Shown: positions 415 to 43,653 of the stretch, piece after piece
How the letters are laid out: each line of letters begins with the position of its first letter
Position numbering within the stretch: position 1 is the first letter of the stretch
Virus record (IMG/VR): IMGVR_UViG_2654587540_000005
From: a virus
Lineage: Duplodnaviria > Heunggongvirae > Uroviricota > Caudoviricetes
Strand: one strand, 5' to 3'
DNA: 44,661 bases
The notes under the pieces: model-generated
Database searches by the model: none
Told to the model about the DNA's origin: nothing
The model's input: only the letters and a program-made list of their open reading frames with translations
Made by a program: the position numbers and the translations under genes

Positions 415-1677
415 CTAATTCATTTTCTTTATTCTCTGGGCGAATTCAAACGGTGTAATGTGTTCTTTTCTGTTGGCATTAAGGTAGTCAGCCCACCATT
501 GTAACATGAGTTTTCTCTCTTCGAGATGTTCCGCTTTGTGGATATATGCTGCCCGAACCGAGTTACGCTCTTGGTGGCTCATTTGACGTTCTACGGCGTC
601 TCTTGACCATAACCCAGATTCGATTAATGCACTACAAGCCATAGTTCGAAAACCGTGACCACAAACTTCAGCTTTCGTGTCGTAACCCATGGTGCGAAGA
701 GCCTTGTTAACAGTGTTTTCGCTGATTGGTTTGTCATCGCGACTAAAACCAATGAACATAAGATCCTTTTCTCCACTTATAGCTTGGAGCCTTTTAAATA
801 ATACTACAGCCTGCTTACTTAGCGGCACAAGATGAGGGGTTTTCATTTTTGAGCCCCTATTTGAATACTTAACCCCCTCCAATTCTCGTCTTTCTGCAGG
901 GATTGTCCATAAGGAGTTTTTGAAATTCACCTCAGACCAACGAGCGAATCTAAGTTCACTTGAACGGATGAAAGTCAGTAGAGTTAATTGAACTGCTATT
1001 TGAGTGATACCTTTCCCTTTATAGGCATCAATCCGTTTGAGAAGCTCAGGAAGTCGTTCGAGGGGAAGGGCAGGGCGGTGATTACTCTTGGCAGTGGTTA
1101 CAGCGCCTGCGAGGTCGTAAGCTGGGTTTTGGTCAATCAAAGCATTGTGAACAGCATACCGCATGATGGCAGTGATTCTTTGTTGTAAACGGGCAGCAAG
1201 TTCAAGATGTCCAGTTTCCTCTGCTTTTTTCAGAGGAACAAGTAAATCACGAGTTTTAAGCTCACTAATGTTCCGCTTACCGATAACAGGAAATACATGA
1301 GTGATCAGGCTGTTTAATACGGTAGTTCTGTGACTGTCTGACCAGGTTCTGTTGCTTGAGTGCCAGTCTCTGGCAACAGTTTCAAAAATGAGTAAGCCTT
1401 TCTCTTCAATCTTTTCTGTTTTTCGCTTTTCGCCAGGGTCAACATTGTTGGCAATGAGTTGCCTTGCTTCTTCTCTTCTACGACGAGCTTCTGCTAAAGA
1501 CACTTCGGGATAAACACCAAGCGCCAACATTTTTTGCTTACCAGAAAAGCGATATTGAAGCCGCCAGTATTTTGAACCCGTAGGGTGAACCAGGAGATGC
1601 ATACCATCCCCATCTGTTAACTTGACGGGCTTTTCAGTAGGTTTCGCATTTCTGACTTTTACCTCAGTTAGTGCCAT
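415..1677 (-). CDS. int: Tyrosine site-specific integrase, P4-like family
   Basis: 420 aa ORF with ATG at 1677 preceded by GGAGG. N-terminus (KPTEKPVKLTDGDGMHLLVHP...YWRLQYRF) is a P4-type arm-binding domain and the C-terminal half has the tyrosine recombinase pattern (...HGFR...RAAYIH...). Confidence 0.85.
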   Translation of the reverse strand: MALTEVKVRNAKPTEKPVKLTDGDGMHLLVHPTGSKYWRLQYRFSGKQKMLALGVYPEVSLAEARRRREEARQLIANNVDPGEKRKTEKIEEKGLLIFETVARDWHSSNRTWSDSHRTTVLNSLITHVFPVIGKRNISELKTRDLLVPLKKAEETGHLELAARLQQRITAIMRYAVHNALIDQNPAYDLAGAVTTAKSNHRPALPLERLPELLKRIDAYKGKGITQIAVQLTLLTFIRSSELRFARWSEVNFKNSLWTIPAERRELEGVKYSNRGSKMKTPHLVPLSKQAVVLFKRLQAISGEKDLMFIGFSRDDKPISENTVNKALRTMGYDTKAEVCGHGFRTMACSALIESGLWSRDAVERQMSHQERNSVRAAYIHKAEHLEERKLMLQWWADYLNANRKEHITPFEFAQRIKKMN

Positions 1678-1853
1678 TGTGACCTCCTGATGATGGTATC
1701 TGCATTATCGAACTTACAATACCAACAGTTATACCAACAAAACAAGCTGGATGTCCGTATATCCCAACAGTCCTTGGTAGACCATGGTTAAAGTGTACTT
1801 CATTGAAATGATTGGGAAAAATAGACTTTGATATACTTCGGTAGACAGGGTTC

Positions 1854-1873
1854 TGGCGTCCCCTGCAGACATC
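1854..1873. repeat. Degenerate direct copy of the argW 3' end (putative distal att site)
   Basis: tggcgtcccctgcagacatc matches tggtgtcccctgcaggaatc at 43579..43598 in 17 of 20 positions, with an exact 11-bp core gtcccctgcag. It lies in the int/alpA intergenic gap. Confidence 0.45.
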
Positions 1874-1941
1874 TACTTGAAGCGGCAGGGGGTTGATTGG
1901 AATGGTATTTTTTAGATGTGAGAAATATTTTACCCGCTATT

Positions 1942-2142
1942 TTACCCATTGGCGCGGCTTAAGAGCTTATTTTTGAATTCACAATGGTCACGATATAACC
2001 ATCTTGCTCGCCCGTGGATAACTTTGGCTTTAGGCAGGTCGCCGGACTTAATCCGGTCGTAGATGAAGGTTTTACCAAAGCCAGTATCAGCCATGATGAA
2101 TTTCAAATCAACCAGGGAATCAGGCTGTAGTTCGTGTTGCAT
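1942..2142 (-). CDS. alpA: AlpA-family HTH protein, putative excisionase/regulator
   Basis: 66 aa ORF with ATG at 2142 and a GGAGA RBS. Small HTH protein (…FIYDRIKSGDLPKAKVIHGRARWLYRD…) typical of AlpA/Xis-like proteins at prophage ends. Confidence 0.7.
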   Translation of the reverse strand: MQHELQPDSLVDLKFIMADTGFGKTFIYDRIKSGDLPKAKVIHGRARWLYRDHCEFKNKLLSRANG

Positions 2143-2266
2143 GAGTGCTATCTCCGAATAGGGAATCGAACCTGCAAATCAGGTAATAAAAAACCGCATT
2201 GATGCGGCGATGGTAGGTCTGGATATCTTGATAAATGAAAATGCCTCATCGAGTGTGAGGCTGTGG

Positions 2267-2611
2267 TTAGTCCTTGCGTAACTCGCTAATTCTTCTGTAA
2301 GTCTCTGGTGCTTTGTTCCCGTACGTCTTCATTTCAGACTTCAACAGAGCAACGAGTGAATCCCATTCGTTGAGGATGCCTTTGAATGCTGGAACGCGCT
2401 TTGCAACCTTGTCGAATGAATCTCTTATTTCTGGAATCTGCTCAACAAGTGCAACGCATCGTCGGAAATCGGCCACATCATGTGGAGCGCCGAAGTGATG
2501 ACCATAGATATTCTTTTTCAGTCCACATGCGATTGAGGCAAGAGTTGCGCTACTGATGCCGACATCGCCAGTCGATTGCCATTTCAAAACCTTCATAGCC
2601 AAATCTGACAT
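2267..2611 (-). CDS. Hypothetical phage protein
   Basis: 114 aa ORF with ATG at 2611 and a GGAGA RBS, co-oriented with and immediately upstream of the DpdA-like gene. No domain recognised. Confidence 0.5.
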   Translation of the reverse strand: MSDLAMKVLKWQSTGDVGISSATLASIACGLKKNIYGHHFGAPHDVADFRRCVALVEQIPEIRDSFDKVAKRVPAFKGILNEWDSLVALLKSEMKTYGNKAPETYRRISELRKD

Positions 2612-2668
2612 TTCTTGTCTCCATAAAACAAAACTCGCCGTAGCGAGTTCAGATAAAAGAAATCCGCA

Positions 2669-3472
2669 TTAAGCGGCGTCGGTGAATTCAAATAAAAAAC
2701 CGGCTTGCGCCGGCTCTCTCATCTTTCTGTCTACCCATGCTGATATCGATGGCTGGTGCACCTTTTCAATAGCAGCGCGAAGTACAGCTGTACGTGCCAG
2801 TTTGTCGGTAATCTCAGGAAATCGCTTCTCAGTTTTTGGTACGTTAACGGCAACGTTAGTAGAATCTGCGCTGGCGAATGGATACATCCCAAGCACCCTG
2901 ACATCTAGCATCCTCAATCCATGGAGCTTAACCGGGGATTTTCTATTGATGTATAGCTCAGTAAACACCTCATCCATGCGCTGCTCCCACCACTTAGATC
3001 GTATATGTCTGTGCGGTCCGCAACATCCTATTGCGACCCACTCATAACGCTCAGAAAGCCTCACAAGTCGATCAATCGATTCATCAGAATGCCATACAGG
3101 TACGTCCTTGGACGCAAGCCAGTGTGGAACTAATGCTAACTGCTCATCGTTTTCTTCCTCCGTTCCTTCAATGACATCAGGTATAAGAAACCACTCAATT
3201 CGGCTGAACCATTTCCCGACAAAGTCATAAAACCTCTCACTTCGCTTCCCCCAGTCCACCGTTTTCTTTTTCTTTTTGGCTTTATCCCATGCTGAAAACG
3301 CGCCGTTATCAAGTCTGATATCACATGGGATCATTGCCACTTTCTTCATCTGCTCCGGTCTTGCAAATGAAATGAACGCTCCACCATCACGGTACAGAGC
3401 CTTTATGAGCATATCTGTAGGTGCATCTTTATCACCCCAGATAGGACTTCCGTGAAAGTGGACTGTCATCAT
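2669..3472 (-). CDS. TGT-superfamily protein, putative DpdA-like DNA 7-deazaguanine transglycosylase
   Basis: 267 aa ORF starting ATGATG at 3472. Motifs RLDNGAF (cf. TGT DSGGFQ), AIGCCG, LHGLRML and FASADST are consistent with a tRNA-guanine transglycosylase-like barrel. Its start overlaps the stop of the upstream membrane-protein gene. Confidence 0.5.
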   Translation of the reverse strand: MMTVHFHGSPIWGDKDAPTDMLIKALYRDGGAFISFARPEQMKKVAMIPCDIRLDNGAFSAWDKAKKKKKTVDWGKRSERFYDFVGKWFSRIEWFLIPDVIEGTEEENDEQLALVPHWLASKDVPVWHSDESIDRLVRLSERYEWVAIGCCGPHRHIRSKWWEQRMDEVFTELYINRKSPVKLHGLRMLDVRVLGMYPFASADSTNVAVNVPKTEKRFPEITDKLARTAVLRAAIEKVHQPSISAWVDRKMREPAQAGFLFEFTDAA

Positions 3473-3930
3473 CTCTTCCTTAAAATTAATGACCAGATAA
3501 AACCTCCGCCAACCTTAGCAATGAACTGGCCGGCAATGATTCCTGGCATAAGAGAGCCGAATGCGATAAGCGGGAACGATATAGAATCAATAACTGAAGC
3601 GGTTATGTTTGAGGCATTTGCCTTAACTGACCAAGGCTTGCGAATCAACAGTTGATAGACGCTTCCGTCTCCCAGTGATGCGAGAACGAAGGAGGCTGAG
3701 GAGGCAATGGCGATCATGCCGCCTGCAGGATTAATGATGTAACTTAAAACTCCTGACAGTACAGCAAGCCCAGTAACTTTAATAAACCCGATTCGCTCAT
3801 GGAGTACGTCACGAAGAATGAAATCAAGGCCAATCAGAGCGAAAGAATTGACGATAGACCACCATGGTCCGAACAGAAACACAAGGTAGTTAGCTGCGCA
3901 GATTGCTAATACATATACAAGTGCAGCCAT
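3469..3930 (-). CDS. Polytopic membrane protein, putative YhhQ/VUT-family queuosine-precursor transporter (short form)
   Basis: Hydrophobic ORF; preferred start is ATG at 3930 with a GAGGG RBS, whereas the ORF-track start at 3987 is a GTG. Several predicted TM helices and YhhQ-like segments by recollection. Translationally coupled to the DpdA-like gene. Confidence 0.4.
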   Translation of the reverse strand: MAALVYVLAICAANYLVFLFGPWWSIVNSFALIGLDFILRDVLHERIGFIKVTGLAVLSGVLSYIINPAGGMIAIASSASFVLASLGDGSVYQLLIRKPWSVKANASNITASVIDSISFPLIAFGSLMPGIIAGQFIAKVGGGFIWSLILRKR

Positions 3931-4083
3931 AGTTGACCCTCTGACATGTGAATGAGCGAAGAGATAGCCGCCCATGCAATAAGGCACGCTATGGCGACCA
4001 GAACTGGGTTGTAATGCATGGTGACTCCGGATAAAGAAAAACCCGCTGGGTGCGGGTTTGTTATGCGTCGAATGGGTTAGGCG

Positions 4084-4323
4084 TCATCCAAGGTATGGCT
4101 TCTTCCAGTCCTCGCTGGTAGCCAACCTCTCCATGGCAAGCAGAATCGGCAGATTAGATTCGTCTGTCTTCTTCATGATTTCCCAATGAAGCCGTTTTAA
4201 CTCGTGGACCAGCTGGTCTCTGTTTGTTTCCGCATCATTGCTGGCAAGCATCAAGCAGCACTCACCAACAATTCGACACGCTTCCCGGTACAGGTCTTCT
4301 GAAAGCTTCTCATATTCTGACAT
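4084..4323 (-). CDS. Hypothetical early-left protein
   Basis: ATG at 4323 with a GGAGGGG RBS; the ORF-track start at 4341 has a weaker context. 79 aa. Confidence 0.5.
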   Translation of the reverse strand: MSEYEKLSEDLYREACRIVGECCLMLASNDAETNRDQLVHELKRLHWEIMKKTDESNLPILLAMERLATSEDWKKPYLG

Positions 4324-4360
4324 AAGCAACCCCTCCACCATGAAGGGATTTTATATCACA

Positions 4361-4687
4361 TCAGTTTGCATCCTGCTGCTCAGCCCTCCGCGCTTCAGCG
4401 TCGTGATATCCCTGCATGTAAGCATCAGCCCAGTCTGGGTTAACACCTGCCTGAATAGCGATTTCGTCGATACACTCAGGCTCTGCGGCGGCCTTTTTCG
4501 CGTGCTCACGAATCTGCGCGATTAGCTCCTCGGCATTAACCTCAAAGCACTTCAGAGTTTCACATCCGCCAACCTTGTCACCGGAGATTCGGCACCCGCC
4601 ATCATCGTTACTTACGCAGAGGGAAAGGCCACCGGCCTGATTGTGAGATATTTCGATATAAACATTGCCTGTCTTCAATTTAGACAT
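4361..4687 (-). CDS. Hypothetical early-left protein
   Basis: 108 aa ORF with ATG at 4687 and an AGGAGG RBS. Its start overlaps the stop of the upstream gene. Confidence 0.5.
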   Translation of the reverse strand: MSKLKTGNVYIEISHNQAGGLSLCVSNDDGGCRISGDKVGGCETLKCFEVNAEELIAQIREHAKKAAAEPECIDEIAIQAGVNPDWADAYMQGYHDAEARRAEQQDAN

Positions 4688-5294
4688 TTTTAGCCTCCTG
4701 CTGCGGCGCTGCTGGTGCGGCGGCGAGCATTTTCGAGTAGCAATGCACTGTATTCAGCCAGAACCCAACCACCGATTGTCCAGCACGCAACATATCTTTT
4801 GTTGGGTCAATCGGAACAAGTTTCCATCCATTCGGAATCACCGGAGAGTTACCAGCCACCATTTTGTTGGCATCATCAGAATGGTCTACCATTTCGAGGT
4901 GTTGCTCGGTATGGTTTCCTCCCTGAAGCATGGCGGCGCGGCAGGCATTCCAGCCTCTCACCTCTGCAATAGCGGCAACAGCATCGACCGCGTACATTTT
5001 AAGAGGGTTGGGCATTGGTTTTTCTTCAGGTACTACTGGCACTGGAGGGGCGGCGTATACTTCAATTGTCCCATTATCAATAGGCCATTCTCCATCCTTG
5101 ATGTAGTCACTTGTGCCATCGACCTGCTGTTCTGCAATGTGGAAAGCACCTATTGGTTTTGCTTCCAGCGATGCCAGAGCAATTCGTGCCAGTTCTTCCG
5201 CTTCTTCTGCTGGCAGTACAACGTTGCTGCCAGGTCCGTATGTTTCGCGCCACTGCTTGATTGTCAGCAGTCGCTCTTTGGTAATAGTGATCAT
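4680..5294 (-). CDS. Hypothetical early-left protein
   Basis: 204 aa ORF with ATG at 5294 and an AAGGAA RBS. No recognised domain. Confidence 0.55.
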   Translation of the reverse strand: MITITKERLLTIKQWRETYGPGSNVVLPAEEAEELARIALASLEAKPIGAFHIAEQQVDGTSDYIKDGEWPIDNGTIEVYAAPPVPVVPEEKPMPNPLKMYAVDAVAAIAEVRGWNACRAAMLQGGNHTEQHLEMVDHSDDANKMVAGNSPVIPNGWKLVPIDPTKDMLRAGQSVVGFWLNTVHCYSKMLAAAPAAPQQEAKNV

Positions 5295-9296: not shown

Positions 9297-9809
9297 TTAT
9301 TTGCTCCTGTAGAATTCGCCGTGATGCTTTCTGGCAAAGTCGCAGTAAGCTTTTTTGGCATCTTCTAATTCATTAAAGTACCCTAGATGTTTTTTCTTCC
9401 CGTTTAATTTCCCATAGGCAGCCCACTTTCTACTTTCCTTCTTCCATGTGACTCCTTTGCAACCTGATTTGTTGAGGGTATTTATTTTACTATTCATTGA
9501 ATTCTGTGAGTAAGTTGCAAGCCTCAGATTGCAAATTCTGTTATCTGTCTTTATGCCATTTATATGGTCGATAATACCTTCAGGCTCAACACCGAAAGTG
9601 ATAATCCATGCAAGTCTATGTGCAGCATAGTGTCTTCCGTTAATGAAAATCCTTAAGTAGCCGCTTGTTGTTATTGTTCCGGCAGTTCCACCTATCTTCC
9701 TTGCTCCATAAGATTTTAGCCATGTGAACTCACCAGAAATAGGGTTATATTTGACAACATTATTAATCTCACTTAGGGAAATTAATTCAAGAATCTTTAT
9801 AAGTGCCAT
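9297..9809 (-). CDS. HNH endonuclease with AP2-type DNA-binding domain
   Basis: HNH motif HINGIKTDNRICNLRL and AP2-like segment SGCKGVTWKKESRKWAAYGK. AT-rich; ATG at 9809. Confidence 0.8.
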   Translation of the reverse strand: MALIKILELISLSEINNVVKYNPISGEFTWLKSYGARKIGGTAGTITTSGYLRIFINGRHYAAHRLAWIITFGVEPEGIIDHINGIKTDNRICNLRLATYSQNSMNSKINTLNKSGCKGVTWKKESRKWAAYGKLNGKKKHLGYFNELEDAKKAYCDFARKHHGEFYRSK

Positions 9810-9893
9810 TTTATATCCTATCAACTGCGTTCATTAATCAGCGTTTACGCTCATGAATAAACACCTCTCGTGAAGCGTTATTGGTATGCATAT

Positions 9894-10595: not shown

Positions 10596-10859
10596 TTACC
10601 TCGCTGTAACCTGCTTACTTGTACGATGACCAGCTGCGAAAAGCGCAACTTCTGGCAGGCAGACAGTACCACCTTCAACTTCCTTCTGAAGCGTTCCGGC
10701 AAGCGAAATGGCTTTTGTTACGCGTGTACTGCATGTGCTATTTGCTACCCGGCGCGAAAGAGAAGCGTCCTGCATTGCCTGCTCACGTTGAGCCTGTCTG
10801 CGTGCTCTGCGGCGATTTCTGGCGTTATCGTCAGCCAGATATGTAATGACTACTGTCAT
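10596..10859 (-). CDS. N: N-type transcription antitermination protein (P22 gp24-like)
   Basis: 87 aa with an arginine-rich motif (NARNRRRARRQAQREQ) near the N-terminus and a C-terminus (VTKAISLAGT.QKEVEGG...AAGHR.SKQ.TAR) matching P22 gp24. Sits immediately downstream of nutL. Confidence 0.7.
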   Translation of the reverse strand: MTVVITYLADDNARNRRRARRQAQREQAMQDASLSRRVANSTCSTRVTKAISLAGTLQKEVEGGTVCLPEVALFAAGHRTSKQVTAR

Positions 10860-11612: not shown

Positions 11613-12329
11613 TCAAACCAGCCTTAGTTTTGTCTCAATTGCAACGCCTATAATCTTGCAGTTTCCATTGATTGGCACGAGAGGCCATGCAGGATTAAGT
11701 CCCTTGAGGTATTTATTTCCGCCGTCGATTATCAGCTTCTTGAATGTTGCTTCGTTAGAGTCAGAAAGTTTTGCTATGACCAAGCTGCCGTTGATCGCCT
11801 CCCTTCCGGTATCGAAAAGAACGAATGTTCCCTCTGGAATGCTTAACCCAACCGGTGCCGTCATTGAATCACCTTCCACTTTAAGCCAGAACGCATTACC
11901 TTGAATATGCGCGTCAGACTCAAGCCAAACATCTATGTCTTTAATGGTGTATGGTTCGCATGCTTCACACCACGAGCCAGCCTGGATACTGCTTAACACC
12001 GGATACCTCTTTCCTGCTCTGTATTCCCCTGCATACCTTACGTTGGCATCGCTCTTAAGGCTTTCTGCCTGTTCTGCAACCTTGGCAGCAATTGACTGGC
12101 TAAAATCAGCAATTGAGACTTGCAACAAACGTGCAAAACCAGATGCGACCTCAACGTTTAGCGCGTTTCTGCCATTAAGATAATGCCCTACCGCTCCTTG
12201 GGTGATACCCAGTTCATCAGCGATTGAGTATTGGGTTATTCCCAATTCTTTCTTTTTTGACTCATACAAAGCCTTAAGCCGCTTAGCGTCTTCGAGCTGT
12301 TCTGTCGTCAGTGATTTTTTATTTTCCAT
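11613..12329 (-). CDS. cI: CI-type prophage repressor (HTH plus S24 LexA-like peptidase domain)
   Basis: 238 aa; N-terminal HTH with the lambda-cI-like pattern TTEQLEDAKRLKALYE, C-terminal autocleavage domain (EGDSM...FKKLI). Confidence 0.9.
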   Translation of the reverse strand: MENKKSLTTEQLEDAKRLKALYESKKKELGITQYSIADELGITQGAVGHYLNGRNALNVEVASGFARLLQVSIADFSQSIAAKVAEQAESLKSDANVRYAGEYRAGKRYPVLSSIQAGSWCEACEPYTIKDIDVWLESDAHIQGNAFWLKVEGDSMTAPVGLSIPEGTFVLFDTGREAINGSLVIAKLSDSNEATFKKLIIDGGNKYLKGLNPAWPLVPINGNCKIIGVAIETKLRLV

Positions 12330-16116: not shown

Positions 16117-16557
16117 ATGAAAAAACTAACCTTTGAAATTCGATCTCCAGCACATCAGCAAAACGCTATTCACGCAGTACAGCAAATCCTTCCAGACCCA
16201 ACCAAACCAATCGTAGTAACCATTCAGGAACGCAACCGCAGCTTAGACCAAAACAGGAAGCTATGGGCTTGCCTTGGTGACGTCTCTCGTCAGGTTGAAT
16301 GGCATGGTCGCTGGCTGGATGCAGAAAGCTGGAAGTGTGTGTTTACCGCAGCATTAAAGCAGCAGGATGTTGTTCCTAACCTTGCCGGGAATGGCTTTGT
16401 GGTAATAGGCCAGTCAACCAGCAGGATGCGTGTAGGCGAATTTGCGGAGCTATTAGAGCTTATACAGGCATTCGGTACAGAGCGTGGCGTTAAGTGGTCA
16501 GACGAAGCGAGACTGGCTCTGGAGTGGAAAGCGAGATGGGGAGATCGGGCTGCATGA
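16117..16557 (+). CDS. ninB: NinB recombination protein
   Basis: ATG at 16117 (the ORF track begins at a TTG at 16099). Protein MKKLTFEIRSPAHQQNAIHAVQQILPDPTKP... is lambda NinB-like. Confidence 0.85.
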   Translation: MKKLTFEIRSPAHQQNAIHAVQQILPDPTKPIVVTIQERNRSLDQNRKLWACLGDVSRQVEWHGRWLDAESWKCVFTAALKQQDVVPNLAGNGFVVIGQSTSRMRVGEFAELLELIQAFGTERGVKWSDEARLALEWKARWGDRAA

Positions 16558-17081
16558 CTATCAAATCAAATACGCCAGCACACGACAAGGACTGCTGGCA
16601 AACGCCGCTTTGGCTTTTTGATGCACTGGATATTGAGTTTGGATTCTGGCTGGATTCGGCAGCGAGCGACAAAAATGCTCTGTGTGCTCACTGGCTAACT
16701 GAGGCCGACGACGCGCTCAATTCTGAGTGGGTAAGCCACGGTGCAATCTGGAATAACCCACCGTACAGCAATATCAGGCCGTGGGTGGAAAAAGCCGCTG
16801 AGCAGTGCATACAACAGCGACAGACGGTAGTGATGCTTGTGCCAGAGGATATGTCAGTCGGATGGTTCAGCAAGGCTCTGGAGAGTGTCGACGAAGTTCG
16901 CATTATCACTGATGGACGGATTAATTTTATCGAACCATCGACGGGGCTGGAGAAGAAGGGAAACAGCAAAGGCTCCATGCTGCTGATTTGGCGACCGTTC
17001 ATCAGTCCTCGACGGATGTTTACTACTGTATCCAAAGCGGCATTGATGGCGATCGGGCAGGGCGTCAGGAGGTACGAATGA
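16554..17081 (+). CDS. DNA N6-adenine methyltransferase (phage Dam-like)
   Basis: ATG at 16554 overlaps the ninB stop. Catalytic NPPY motif (IWNNPPYS) in a Dam-family context. Confidence 0.8.
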
Positions 17082-19685: not shown

Positions 19686-20198
19686 ATGAAAGAAATAAAA
19701 TTAACGCCAGAAATGGTGCTTTCTGTTGTTGATTACAATCCATCATCAGGCGACTTTCACTGGAGATGGAGGCGGGGAAGAGAGAGGACCACTTTGACAT
19801 GGAACTCTCGTTTTGCTTTCAAGAAATGCTCATCAATAAATTCTGATGGGTATTTAATGATTATGATTAATGGTAAAGCATACCCTGCTCACAGACTGGC
19901 ATGGTTGATTGTTTATGGCACCATGCCCGATGGTTTTATTGATCACATCAACAGGGTAAGAACAGATAACCGGATATCAAATCTTCGTCTTGTCACTCAT
20001 TCCGAAAATATGCAGAACAGGAAAATTCAGAAGAATAATAAATCTGGATACCGTGGCGTGTCTTGGGATGCTAAGTACGGGAAATGGAGAGCAAGAATTA
20101 ATGCGTCTGGAAAGTGTATTAACCTTGGATACCATGATACTGCCGAACTTGCCGCTGCGGCTTTTGAGGCCGCCAGAATGAAATATCATACCGTTTAA
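19686..20198 (+). CDS. HNH endonuclease with AP2-type domain (second copy)
   Basis: HNH motif HINRVRTDNRISNLRL and AP2-like segment SGYRGVSWDAKYGKWRARI. Paralogous to the 9297..9809 gene; AT-rich. Confidence 0.8.
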   Translation: MKEIKLTPEMVLSVVDYNPSSGDFHWRWRRGRERTTLTWNSRFAFKKCSSINSDGYLMIMINGKAYPAHRLAWLIVYGTMPDGFIDHINRVRTDNRISNLRLVTHSENMQNRKIQKNNKSGYRGVSWDAKYGKWRARINASGKCINLGYHDTAELAAAAFEAARMKYHTV

Positions 20199-29912: not shown

Positions 29913-30150
<238 letters not shown>

Positions 30151-30173
<23 letters not shown>

Positions 30174-30651
30174 TTTAGTCCTTGCGGCATTACGTAAGCT
30201 CGGTGTGGCATCAAATGCCACGTTAACCGATGTCGAACCGCAGTCTATGGAAGACGGCGTCAACGACCTTGAAATGATGATGGCTGAATGGCTTGGAGGT
30301 GATGCGTCACCTGGTATCAACGTTGGCTACATTTTCGCTGATGCAGATGTCGCTCCAGATCCGGGCGATGAGCACGGTTTATCAAATAACGCTATCAATG
30401 CTGTTATTTTCAACCTTGCCTGCCGCATTGCACCGGATTATGCGCTGGAAGCGCCTGCAAAACTTATAACCACTGCCAGATACGGGAAAGAGCGACTCGT
30501 CAAACTGTCTGCAATGGACAGAGCAAAAGCCGCTAAATGTAAGTCCGGTTATCCAAACCGTATGCCTGTTGGTAGCGGTAACCAGTTGGCGAAGTGGAAC
30601 GGTTGGAATTACTTCCACCGAAAGGAACCTTGCGATAACGGGAGCGAATAA
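30151..30651 (+). CDS. Head completion / tail adaptor protein (P22 gp4-like)
   Basis: ATG at 30151; the ORF-track start at 30052 runs through the repeat in the wrong frame. Matches the gp4 type (…[27 protein letters not shown]…). Confidence 0.8.
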
Positions 30652-42235: not shown

Positions 42236-43417
42236 CTATCCGATGGTGTTTAAGTTTCCTAACTCCGCCTTTTCATCAAGCCAGTCCGCCCACCACTGCA
42301 TCATTTCTCTGCGCTTATCGAGATACTGAGCATGGTTGTAAATTCCGCGCACAGATCCGCCGTTGGCATGTGCCAGTTGCACTTCAATAGCGTCAGCAGG
42401 CCATTCGTGCTCGTTCATAATCGTGCTGAATTCATGCCTGAATCCGTGACCGCTTTCCAGACCTTCATAGCCGATTTGTTTGATCACAAGCAGTACAGCG
42501 TTCTCGCAAATTGGCTTCTTCTTATCGTTGCGCCCGGCAAAAACAAACTCTGACACTGGTTTAGTGATTGAGCTTAGCGTAGTGAGAAGTTCAACTACCT
42601 GGTCTGACATCGGTACTACATGAATCTTGCGACCCTTCATCACACTGGCGTCGATGGTGATAATCCTGTTTTCAAAATCGACGTTCTTCCATAGCATGGA
42701 ACGAAGTTCTTTCGTTCTTAGGGCGGTGTAGCGTAAAACTTTAGTCGCAATAAGCGATACGATACTTCCTGAAAATGTTGCCAGTGCTTTGTTGAATGCC
42801 GGGATCTGGTCTGCAGGAAGAAACGGGAAGTTCTTCTTGCGGTATCCTTTCATGGCGTCTGCAAGGTCAGGTGCCGGGTTATATTTAGCCCTTCCGGTGA
42901 CAATAGCGTAACGGAAAACCTCTCCGCATCTTCTGCGGGCTTTGTTGGCTCGCTCCATTGCACCGCGATCTTCAAATCTGCGGATTACTTCCAGCAGTTG
43001 CATCGGCTCAATATCCTGAATTTCAAGGCCGCCGATGATGGGTAAAATGTCGTCGTCAAACATTTTGGCAAGTTCGTTTGCATAGCCTACTGACCAGACT
43101 TGCTTCTTGTGCTCGTACCATTCCTTGTAAATGGCGCTAAAGGAATTGTTATTAGACGAAGCCTTTTTCGCTTTTACCGGATCGATGCCAACCGAGATGT
43201 CTTTCCTCGCGGTCCATGCTTTATCCCTTGCCTCCTGCAAAGTCATAAGCGGATATTTTCCGACGGTCAGTATTTTTTCCTTACCGTCAATCTTGTAGCG
43301 AAGCTGCCATACCTTTTTCCCGGATACAGGAACATAAAGGTACAGGCCATTACCATCGAGAAGGCGGTATGGTTTTTCTTTCGGCTTTGCTGCTTCAATC
43401 TGCTTAACGGTGAGCAT
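42236..43417 (-). CDS. intS: Tyrosine integrase, IntS-like (argW-associated)
   Basis: P4-type integrase adjacent to argW and co-oriented with it. ATG at 43417 (MLTVKQIEAAKPKEKPYRLLDG...); the ORF-track start at 43453 is a GTG. Contains the conserved HGFRH and tyrosine regions. Confidence 0.85.
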   Translation of the reverse strand: MLTVKQIEAAKPKEKPYRLLDGNGLYLYVPVSGKKVWQLRYKIDGKEKILTVGKYPLMTLQEARDKAWTARKDISVGIDPVKAKKASSNNNSFSAIYKEWYEHKKQVWSVGYANELAKMFDDDILPIIGGLEIQDIEPMQLLEVIRRFEDRGAMERANKARRRCGEVFRYAIVTGRAKYNPAPDLADAMKGYRKKNFPFLPADQIPAFNKALATFSGSIVSLIATKVLRYTALRTKELRSMLWKNVDFENRIITIDASVMKGRKIHVVPMSDQVVELLTTLSSITKPVSEFVFAGRNDKKKPICENAVLLVIKQIGYEGLESGHGFRHEFSTIMNEHEWPADAIEVQLAHANGGSVRGIYNHAQYLDKRREMMQWWADWLDEKAELGNLNTIG

Positions 43418-43578
43418 GGGTAAAAATCCGGTGGGTAAAATTATTTTATCCACTTTTTACCCGTCATGGTGTGCGGCTGTCAACGATCTGACGCGAACCA
43501 TTACGAACTGTGAATCTATGGAAGGCTTGATATGCAGGGGATTTTGCGGACTAGTACGGATGGGAGCGAACTGATAAA

Positions 43579-43653
43579 TGGTGTCCCCTGCAGGAATCGA
43601 ACCTGCAATTAGCCCTTAGGAGGGGCTCGTTATATCCATTTAACTAAGAGGAC
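43579..43653 (-). tRNA. argW: tRNA-Arg (anticodon CCU)
   Basis: 75-nt minus-strand cloverleaf: 7-bp acceptor stem (GTCCTCT/AGGGGAC), anticodon stem AGCCC/GGGCT with loop CUCCUAA giving anticodon CCU, T-arm GGTTCGATTCC, 3' ACCA. Confidence 0.9.

Follow-up and report, generated by a model that had tools for sequence, protein, structure and literature searches.

A DpdA-like transglycosylase overlapping a compact VUT membrane protein in an argW P22-like prophage: a candidate salvage-and-insert cassette for 7-deazaguanine DNA modification

Modifying their DNA with 7-deazaguanines is an established way for phages to counter restriction and CRISPR. DpdA enzymes encoded without a precursor pathway make up the largest class in phages, and the few phages of this class that have been tested carry trace modification or none. 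Here we examine a gene pair in a tailed-phage sequence, IMG/VR record IMGVR_UViG_2654587540_000005 (44,661 nucleotides; the window), that encodes a 267-amino-acid (aa) DpdA-like transglycosylase and a 153-aa membrane protein of the VUT (YhhQ-like) family. The original prediction, made from the DNA letters, was that the pair forms a 7-deazaguanine DNA-modification module in which a transporter supplies the enzyme with its precursor base.

DNA modification is proven, and dpdA-dependent, in phage CAjan, where DpdA is required for dPreQ0 and 32% of G is found as dPreQ0 (PMC7544227; PMC6884629); a YhhQ-like gene accompanying the phage DpdA has also been described there (PMC7544227). CAjan resembles the window in having a zinc-less phage DpdA (gp35) and a short VUT protein (gp41, 159 aa) in one cluster. 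It differs in that it encodes FolE, QueD and QueE as well as QueC, in that gp35 and gp41 lie ~2.3 kb apart and do not overlap, and in that its DpdA is only ~25% identical to the window enzyme, over part of the length.

Because none of FolE, QueD, QueE or QueC was found in the window, the phage belongs by gene content to group 3 (DpdA only), and not to groups 1 and 2, of Hutinet et al. 2019 (PMC6884629). Group 3 phages with a singleton DpdA (HK106, SfI, BTP1, PEAT2 and others) resemble the window phage: lacking preQ0-synthesis genes, they are temperate phages of lambdoid or P22-like type in which the gene lies close to int/xis. HK106 gp29 is of the same DpdA lineage (81% nucleotide identity); it is a 'queuine tRNA-ribosyltransferase' in RefSeq and was tabled as DpdA among the DpdA-only phages (Supplementary Data 1, PMC6884629). 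Unlike the window, HK106, the Escherichia coli W prophage and 78% of sampled DpdA loci have no VUT partner. The Pectobacterium phage PEAT2 (NC_044940) does have one: gp18 and gp19 are the same overlapping pair in the same order, annotated in RefSeq as 'VUT family protein (YhhQ family domain)' and 'queuine tRNA-ribosyltransferase'. The PEAT2 VUT protein is 57% identical to that of the window and its DpdA matches our family profile with E 1e-131. PEAT2 differs in being an isolated Peatvirus with the pair after a DNA primase gene, the window being a P22-like argW prophage. The 2019 table enters PEAT2 as DpdA only, without YhhQ (PMC6884629).

Phages with DpdA and YhhQ only are already in that table (CDKM15, eHP-6 and phiLM21, with adjacent accession numbers), and the same paper, having used YhhQ as a query, reported no correlation (PMC6884629). 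The original prediction therefore overrated the novelty of the locus, given the tabled HK106 homologue, the tabled DpdA plus YhhQ phages and the annotated PEAT2 pair. The new elements are the occurrence of the pair in a P22-like E. coli prophage at argW, and a count by which short VUT proteins hardly ever occur apart from DpdA. That inseparability would not surprise a specialist; it is a testable handle on singleton DpdAs. There is also practical value for annotation: 82 complete E. coli genomes carry the enzyme gene, and in every one of them the Prokaryotic Genome Annotation Pipeline (PGAP) labels its product 'hypothetical protein'.

We consider the 267-aa protein to be, with little room for doubt, a DpdA-family homologue. 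It matched PHROG 887 ('queuine tRNA-ribosyltransferase'; category 'moron, auxiliary metabolic gene and host takeover') with E 4e-95. A profile built from 28 homologues aligned to CAjan DpdA in hhalign (probability 94.7%, E 6e-8, 155 columns), with LDNGAFS of the window placed on LDSGAFS of CAjan and SADST on SCDSS; a direct match to CAjan DpdA was also obtained for more distant family members, the lowest E being 2.5e-12 in searches of small databases. The tRNA-guanine transglycosylase (TGT)/DpdA-type assignment had been put forward as refutable, and it is upheld by the PHROG 887 and CAjan matches. The four motifs quoted for the enzyme (RLDNGAF, AIGCCG, LHGLRML and FASADST) are all present.

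Residues D55, F59, D99, H128, G149, G152, H184, G185, L186, D203 and S204 were invariant in the 28 homologues, down to 44% identity, and in the structural model each lies at the C-terminal end of a predicted beta-strand. The counterparts in bacterial DpdA (bDpdA) run D95, F99, D130, H181, G206/207, L236 and D256, the acid/base and the nucleophile having been proven by mutation (PMC10164549). The window enzyme keeps this order and the D-x3-F spacing; D55 and D203 also align with the CAjan motifs, and the equivalence of D99 and H128 is by order only. From this conservation, D203 would be the nucleophile, D55 the general acid/base and F59 the gate, with D99 and H128 reading the base edge.

The bacterial DpdA of Salmonella Montevideo (PDB 7UI4) is thus like the window enzyme in active-site residue order and proposed chemistry. 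It differs in its length of 413 aa, its CXCX2CX22H zinc site, its insertions, its need for the DpdB ATPase and its place in a restriction-modification island, none of which applies to the window enzyme. The structural zinc site (PMC10164549) is absent from the 267-aa protein, which has three cysteines in all, C50, C150 and C151, and none past residue 151; the protein also lacks a C-terminal RNA-binding domain. Membership of a bacterial Dpd system was likewise not found: PADLOC gave no match for the pair or for six other window proteins (eight scanned), the DpdB-K context is absent, and the neighbours are phage early genes. In the structure comparison, 7UI4 was the best match; a Foldseek search of the PDB with the enzyme model ranked generic TIM barrels first and was thus uninformative. 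The last 12 residues of the model had a predicted local distance difference test (pLDDT) score <50.

Natural fusions of a DpdA-like domain to Dam also exist, as 460-aa proteins (P0103, Citrobacter freundii and others; a cluster of 42 members). Residues 1-263 of P0103 are DpdA-like and 74% identical to the window enzyme; over residues 284-450 it is an N6-adenine methyltransferase of the Dam family, with 49% identity to the product of the window Dam gene (16494..17081, nin region). Since these fusions exist and the DpdA-like gene lies among phage recombination and anti-RecBCD genes, DNA is supported as the target of the enzyme.

The 153-aa protein passed the gathering score of Pfam PF02592 (Vut_1; 35.6 bits against 27.2) and matched phrog_4899 with E 1.6e-35. 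Its family profile aligned with E. coli YhhQ in hhalign (probability 88.9%, E 2.4e-6; Arg, Asp, Ser and Phe positions in common), and it is 31% identical to CAjan gp41, a 'putative preQ0 transporter' (E 8e-9). The YhhQ/VUT assignment, also offered as refutable, accordingly held. E. coli YhhQ, a preQ0/preQ1 transporter (COG1738, PF02592), is of the same Pfam family and shares the D/R/S/F positions in the aligned helices. It differs in being 221 aa long (in agreement with the ~220 aa originally given), in matching the full Pfam model at 125 bits and in passing the equivalog models, the window protein having 153 aa and matching positions 64-140. On these scores the 153-aa protein is a VUT-family member and not a YhhQ orthologue, and should not be filed as YhhQ.

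A truncated YhhQ, which had been raised as a possibility, was rejected. The full-length homologues are uniformly 153-185 aa long (CAjan gp41 has 159), all 95 of them carry PF02592, and the AlphaFold2 (AF2) model has six complete helices over residues 2-151 (pLDDT 90.2), in keeping with the small polytopic membrane protein that had been described. The nearest solved folds are six-helix S-components of energy-coupling factor (ECF) transporters, with template-modelling (TM) scores of 0.5-0.63. With ~155 aa and six helices being the subfamily norm, the protein is, judged by sequence and model, a complete member of a compact phage VUT subfamily. A profile search of 1.84 billion representatives found 1624 VUT relatives at E <= 1e-3. 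Many metagenomic relatives are longer, at 290-350 aa (P0263, P0276, P0280, P0312, P0331, P0337 and others), with the VUT domain followed by one extra hydrophobic helix and a ~150-aa C-terminal domain, often with an aromatic last residue. In P0280 this domain is DUF5020 (PF16412, 80.9 bits); possibly it is a beta domain of outer-membrane type that has been fused to the importer or mis-called along with it.

To follow the coupling of the two genes across loci, we scanned viral contigs with the VUT profile, which gave at least 497 relatives, and inspected the best 80 loci (48-100% identity). A DpdA-like gene was directly adjacent, on the same strand, in 79 of them; in the remaining locus the VUT gene lies at a cut contig end. 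Coupling of enzyme and transporter is thus stronger than had been claimed. The gene order is either VUT-DpdA, as in the window, or DpdA-VUT, and the gaps are mostly 0-12 nt. The pair recurs in an enterobacterial prophage (L165), in the isolated phages PEAT2, AB3P2 and vB_EcoD_Opt-719 and in ECO111 5-P; its carriers include virulent phages without lysogeny (a Rogunavirinae phage and Peatvirus). On a contig of the Firmicute Tumebacillus permanentifrigoris (L164, 1292..3039) the short VUT gene stands beside a different, CAjan-like DpdA lineage: its upstream neighbour encodes 222 aa, resembles CAjan DpdA (pairwise E 4e-7; DCTSW motif) and is missed by the enterobacterial DpdA profile. The downstream neighbour of VUT in this contig encodes a dUTPase_2-like protein. 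No third gene was conserved, with no neighbour family in more than 16 of the 79 loci. In phages, a compact VUT protein hardly ever occurs unless a DpdA is adjacent, which argues that the singleton enzymes still use a base of the queuosine-precursor type and that precursor supply is limiting.

In the window, as had been described, both are minus-strand open reading frames (ORFs) whose ends overlap (Table 1). One detail was the wrong way round: the membrane gene had been called downstream of the enzyme gene, which holds in plus-strand coordinates only; by transcription it is upstream (5'). The ATGA overlap, together with an AGGA ribosome-binding site for the enzyme gene within the 3' end of the VUT gene, implies translational coupling. 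The VUT start is an ATG preceded by GAGGG, at which its homologues also begin; the longer in-frame starts at 3987 (GTG, 172 aa) and 3975 (ATG, 168 aa) were rejected, neither having a ribosome-binding site. Both genes are under strong purifying selection, the ratio of non-synonymous to synonymous substitution rates (dN/dS) against relatives being 0.03-0.06 (0.035-0.053 for the VUT gene alone). Database homologues number 3590 for the enzyme and 97 for the membrane protein, and NCBI holds identical proteins from E. coli as 'VUT family protein' and 'hypothetical protein'.

One copy of the module has decayed. P0096 of Enterobacter cloacae GS1 (264 aa) joins VUT residues 1-54 to DpdA residues 56-267, the outcome of an in-frame junction deletion that removed the catalytic Asp55 and most of the transporter.

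A tblastn search of the whole window with the CAjan proteins gave no significant match for folE, queD, queE or queC, and Pfam scans of the early-region ORFs found none of these families, as originally noted. With the CAjan proteins as queries, no FolE, QueD, QueE or QueC homologue was found within 6 kb of the pair in 159 loci. Because preQ0-synthesis genes are absent from the window and these loci, the base must come from the host pool or from outside, which agrees with the source that had been proposed (host pool or medium).

These results can be drawn together as a DNA-modification cassette of two genes, of a 'salvage-and-insert' kind, in a P22/HK620-like prophage that integrates at argW; to the mechanism in full we give a probability of roughly 0.6. 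The cassette would be carried on the N-antiterminated early-left transcript, having no promoter of its own, and be expressed after induction or infection. The VUT protein, from its family membership, would sit in the inner membrane and import a free queuosine-precursor base, likeliest preQ0 and possibly preQ1 or a relative, lifting the base pool above what the host pathway and host YhhQ supply. After replication, the DpdA-like enzyme would swap guanines in double-stranded phage DNA for the imported base by the double displacement of TGT/DpdA enzymes, as its conserved residues suggest, needing neither a DpdB ATPase nor a zinc site, as for the CAjan DpdA. The modified DNA would then be partly protected from restriction in the next host, as is established only for phage DpdAs outside this group. 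By analogy with other DpdA-only phages, the modification level may be low. What has been observed is how the genes are built, which families they belong to, which residues never vary, how nearly obligate the adjacency is and that preQ0-synthesis genes are missing; the substrate, DNA target, expression timing and modification level are inferred.

Several points weigh against this mechanism. E. coli itself makes preQ0 and has YhhQ, so that the gain from a second importer is not obvious. The VUT gene is found in only 17 of 79 sampled DpdA loci (78% without it), and the VUT protein matches only the C-terminal ~60% of PF02592 (152 positions) and misses the NCBIfam YhhQ equivalogs by far (PRK11212, 19.4 against 252; TIGR00697, 15.4 against 50.95). 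The enzyme has no Pfam match at E <= 1 and no NCBIfam match; phmmer and the A1 family profile found no TGT or DpdA chain for it in the PDB sequence set; and hhalign against E. coli Tgt gave a probability of 0.6%, i.e. no detectable profile match. The missing Pfam and PDB matches are not evidence against the DpdA assignment, because the validated CAjan DpdA likewise has no Pfam match at E <= 10 and no PDB sequence match. The partner of a distant VUT-like protein in mEp021-type phages is not DpdA but a protein that the depositor labelled a putative DNA cytosine methyltransferase. The library that was searched holds no report of 7-deazaguanine nucleosides in DNA for this gamma-proteobacterial singleton lineage, which forms its own similarity-network cluster and for which functional divergence was raised by the authors (PMC6884629). 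Among DpdA-only phages, dADG makes up 0.02% of G in 7-11, and Orion is unmodified (PMC6884629); in MED16, liquid chromatography-tandem mass spectrometry (LC-MS/MS) detected dADG, with dPreQ0 at a negligible ~0.001% of G. In CAjan, deletion of yhhQ left the modification unchanged (PMC7544227).

Many of the same points feed the alternative that survives best, namely that the enzyme of this conserved pair has no activity on DNA or has shifted to some other reaction, the virion DNA being canonical as in mycobacteriophage Orion, and that the VUT protein imports some other small molecule. The separate network clusters with the functional shift raised there, the unmodified Orion and trace-modified 7-11 (PMC6884629), and the enzyme's lack of Pfam or NCBIfam recognition and of a profile link to E. 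coli Tgt all favour this reading, as do the scores below the YhhQ equivalog models and the mEp021 pairing with a non-DpdA enzyme. Against it, neither the three catalytic Asp nor the His nor the gate Phe varies among homologues down to 44% identity, and dN/dS is ~0.03-0.06. That Orion is unmodified is put down to its host, which has no preQ0 synthesis (PMC6884629), a pathway that E. coli has, and the obligate pairing with a transporter family of the queuosine-precursor type argues that the enzyme still uses such a base. We regard this alternative as improbable.

The enzyme might instead act on RNA: as a phage TGT, it would use the imported base to alter the tRNA of host or phage and so tune translation during infection. 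The enzyme lacks a zinc site and a C-terminal RNA-binding domain, its demonstrable sequence link is to the DNA-modifying CAjan DpdA and not to E. coli Tgt, and its relatives are fused to a DNA methyltransferase. Moreover, the phage TGT paralogues tested to date all modify DNA (PMC10516641). An RNA target is very unlikely.

The setting of the pair bears on a different alternative, in which it is a lysogenic-conversion cassette for host benefit and not a protection of virion DNA: either queuosine precursors scavenged by the VUT protein would serve host tRNA, or lysogen DNA would be marked by the pair. Terminator-like hairpins bracket the pair as in a moron cassette, PHROG places the enzyme in its moron class, and the VUT gene occurs sporadically among near-identical DpdA genes, all of which favour this. 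HK106 and the E. coli W prophage, for example, are without VUT, and their homology to the window breaks off exactly at the DpdA start codon; among 5426 complete E. coli genomes, we found the DpdA gene in 82 and the VUT gene in 0. Such a role is opposed by there being no sigma-70-like promoter in the coding-strand stretch from the upstream terminator to the genes, by the same pair in virulent Rogunavirinae and Peatvirus phages, and by the absence of a recognised restriction partner, PADLOC being negative on the eight window proteins. We give lysogenic conversion as little credence as an RNA target. A Cap10-like protein-modifying or counter-defence role, in which the barrel would add deazaguanine to or remove it from, instead of a nucleic acid, a protein such as the cyclase of a cyclic-oligonucleotide-based anti-phage signalling system (CBASS), is hardly credible, since identity to Cap10 is only 10% against 17% to DpdA with generic TIM barrels scoring as high as Cap10, no QueC-like Cap9 partner was found near the enzyme in the window or the sampled loci, and PADLOC gave no match.

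A more far-reaching form of the salvage-and-insert mechanism can be drawn from the adjacency counts. Here the short (~155-aa) VUT protein would be a dedicated, near-obligate accessory of phage DpdA, and the two would form a self-sufficient 'import-and-insert' module, the base possibly being preQ1, queuine or another environmental 7-deazapurine. We put this forward tentatively, and think it unlikely as a whole. If true, the module would free the phage from the host de novo pathway, and the level or type of phage DNA modification would be set by supply from the microbiota or the medium. Short VUT proteins may also partner other DNA-modification enzymes, as mEp021 hints. In that phage (L168, 2462..3729) a six-helix VUT-like protein, 31% identical, overlaps a 252-aa protein annotated as a methyltransferase, for which we found no Pfam match. 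The same arrangement is present in mEp010, mEp013, mEp044, mEp515, mEp554 and MagusPhagus, with a Dam gene two genes upstream.

Returning to expression of the cassette, three terminator-like hairpins lie around or within it (Table 1); overall, the region 1600..4800 contains 9 terminator-like sites against 2.5 +/- 1.4 in shuffles. The Dam-fusion proteins diverge in sequence at the point of the 2694..2719 hairpin. No sigma-70-like promoter was found on the minus (coding) strand upstream of the pair, and so none for the cassette itself. With an N antiterminator upstream, bracketing terminators and no coding-strand promoter of this kind, the simplest reading would be expression by N-dependent read-through during lytic growth.

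A candidate small ORF encoding a hydrophobic 37-aa peptide begins 20 nt after the upstream terminator hairpin (Table 1). It has the same length and a diverged sequence in L009-L014, is broken in L015 and L016 and is absent from more distant loci; the peptide gave no Pfam match. Found only in the closest relatives, it is possibly an accessory or leader peptide. The 114-aa neighbour (ORF114, 2267..2611) had been suggested as a third component of the module. This was rejected: it is of the phage 434 ORF114/HK022 family (phrog_1229), which many lambdoid phages without DpdA have, it turned up only once among 80 VUT loci and twice among 79 DpdA loci, and two terminator-like hairpins separate it from the pair.

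Table 1. Coordinates of the gene pair, its expression signals and the prophage landmarks in the window
Feature	Coordinates	Strand	Basis or remark
VUT/YhhQ-like membrane protein, six-helix, 153 aa; candidate importer of a 7-deazaguanine base	3469..3930	minus	ORF, Pfam, PHROG, hhalign, AF2 model
DpdA-like TIM-barrel transglycosylase, singleton DpdA group, 267 aa	2669..3472	minus	ORF
ATGA stop/start overlap, membrane-gene stop with enzyme-gene start	3469..3472	minus	Sequence; same junction in related loci
Terminator-like hairpin just upstream of the pair (AAACCCGC-ACCCA-GCGGGTTT, then T run)	4039..4059	minus	A hairpin retained at this position in L009-L017
Candidate 37-aa hydrophobic small ORF (MHYNPVLVAIACLIAWAAISSLIHMSEGQLWLHLYMY), GGAG ribosome-binding site, overlaps VUT start	3906..4019	minus	Sequence
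Terminator-like hairpin in last 17 codons of DpdA-like gene, 11 pairs then T6	2694..2719	minus	Terminator scan
Terminator-like hairpin between DpdA-like gene and ORF114	2631..2650	minus	Terminator scan
N antiterminator	10596..10859	minus	
cI-like repressor	11613..12329	minus	
IntS-like integrase, adjoining argW	42236..43453		
tRNA-Arg(CCT), argW	43579..43653		

The window is a P22/HK620/KplE1-type prophage inserted at argW, and also contains P22-type head, injection and tailspike genes. Look-ups of identical proteins across the window led to mosaic relatives and not to the same prophage. The early-left genes run unbroken on the minus strand, the last being VUT, the DpdA-like gene, ORF114 and a TorI-like excisionase. 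This bears out the placing of the pair at the far end of the early-left operon, with only ORF114 and the excisionase beyond it before attR. The KplE1 attR primer sequence (PMC3509656) matches the window at 1950-1969 and a remnant of the tRNA 3' end lies at ~1853-1867, so the prophage ends just past torI. A 16-nt extra copy of the argW T-arm (GGAATCGAACCTGCAA) at 2162..2177, 20 nt upstream of torI and present in E. coli W too, was considered as attR and rejected, since the KplE1 literature and the tRNA remnant put attR beyond torI.

Other features of the window can be noted briefly. The TorI-like excisionase (1942..2142) belongs to a recombination module of the KplE1/HK620 kind, with the IntS-like integrase at the opposite end. 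Because the prophage ends just past torI, a 420-aa integrase at 415..1677 lies outside it and comes from a neighbouring second element; in the matching genome contig (L004) this integrase is followed by RloB and AAA_15 genes. Two paralogous genes with HNH_3 and AP2 domains, of homing-endonuclease type, are found at 9297..9824 (minus strand, early-left) and 19686..20198 (plus strand, late-regulatory). Finally, a perfect tandem run of the hexamer CAGAGC, with three overlapping 22-nt copies, occupies 30058..30103 at the start of an ORF (30052..30651) in the virion-gene region.

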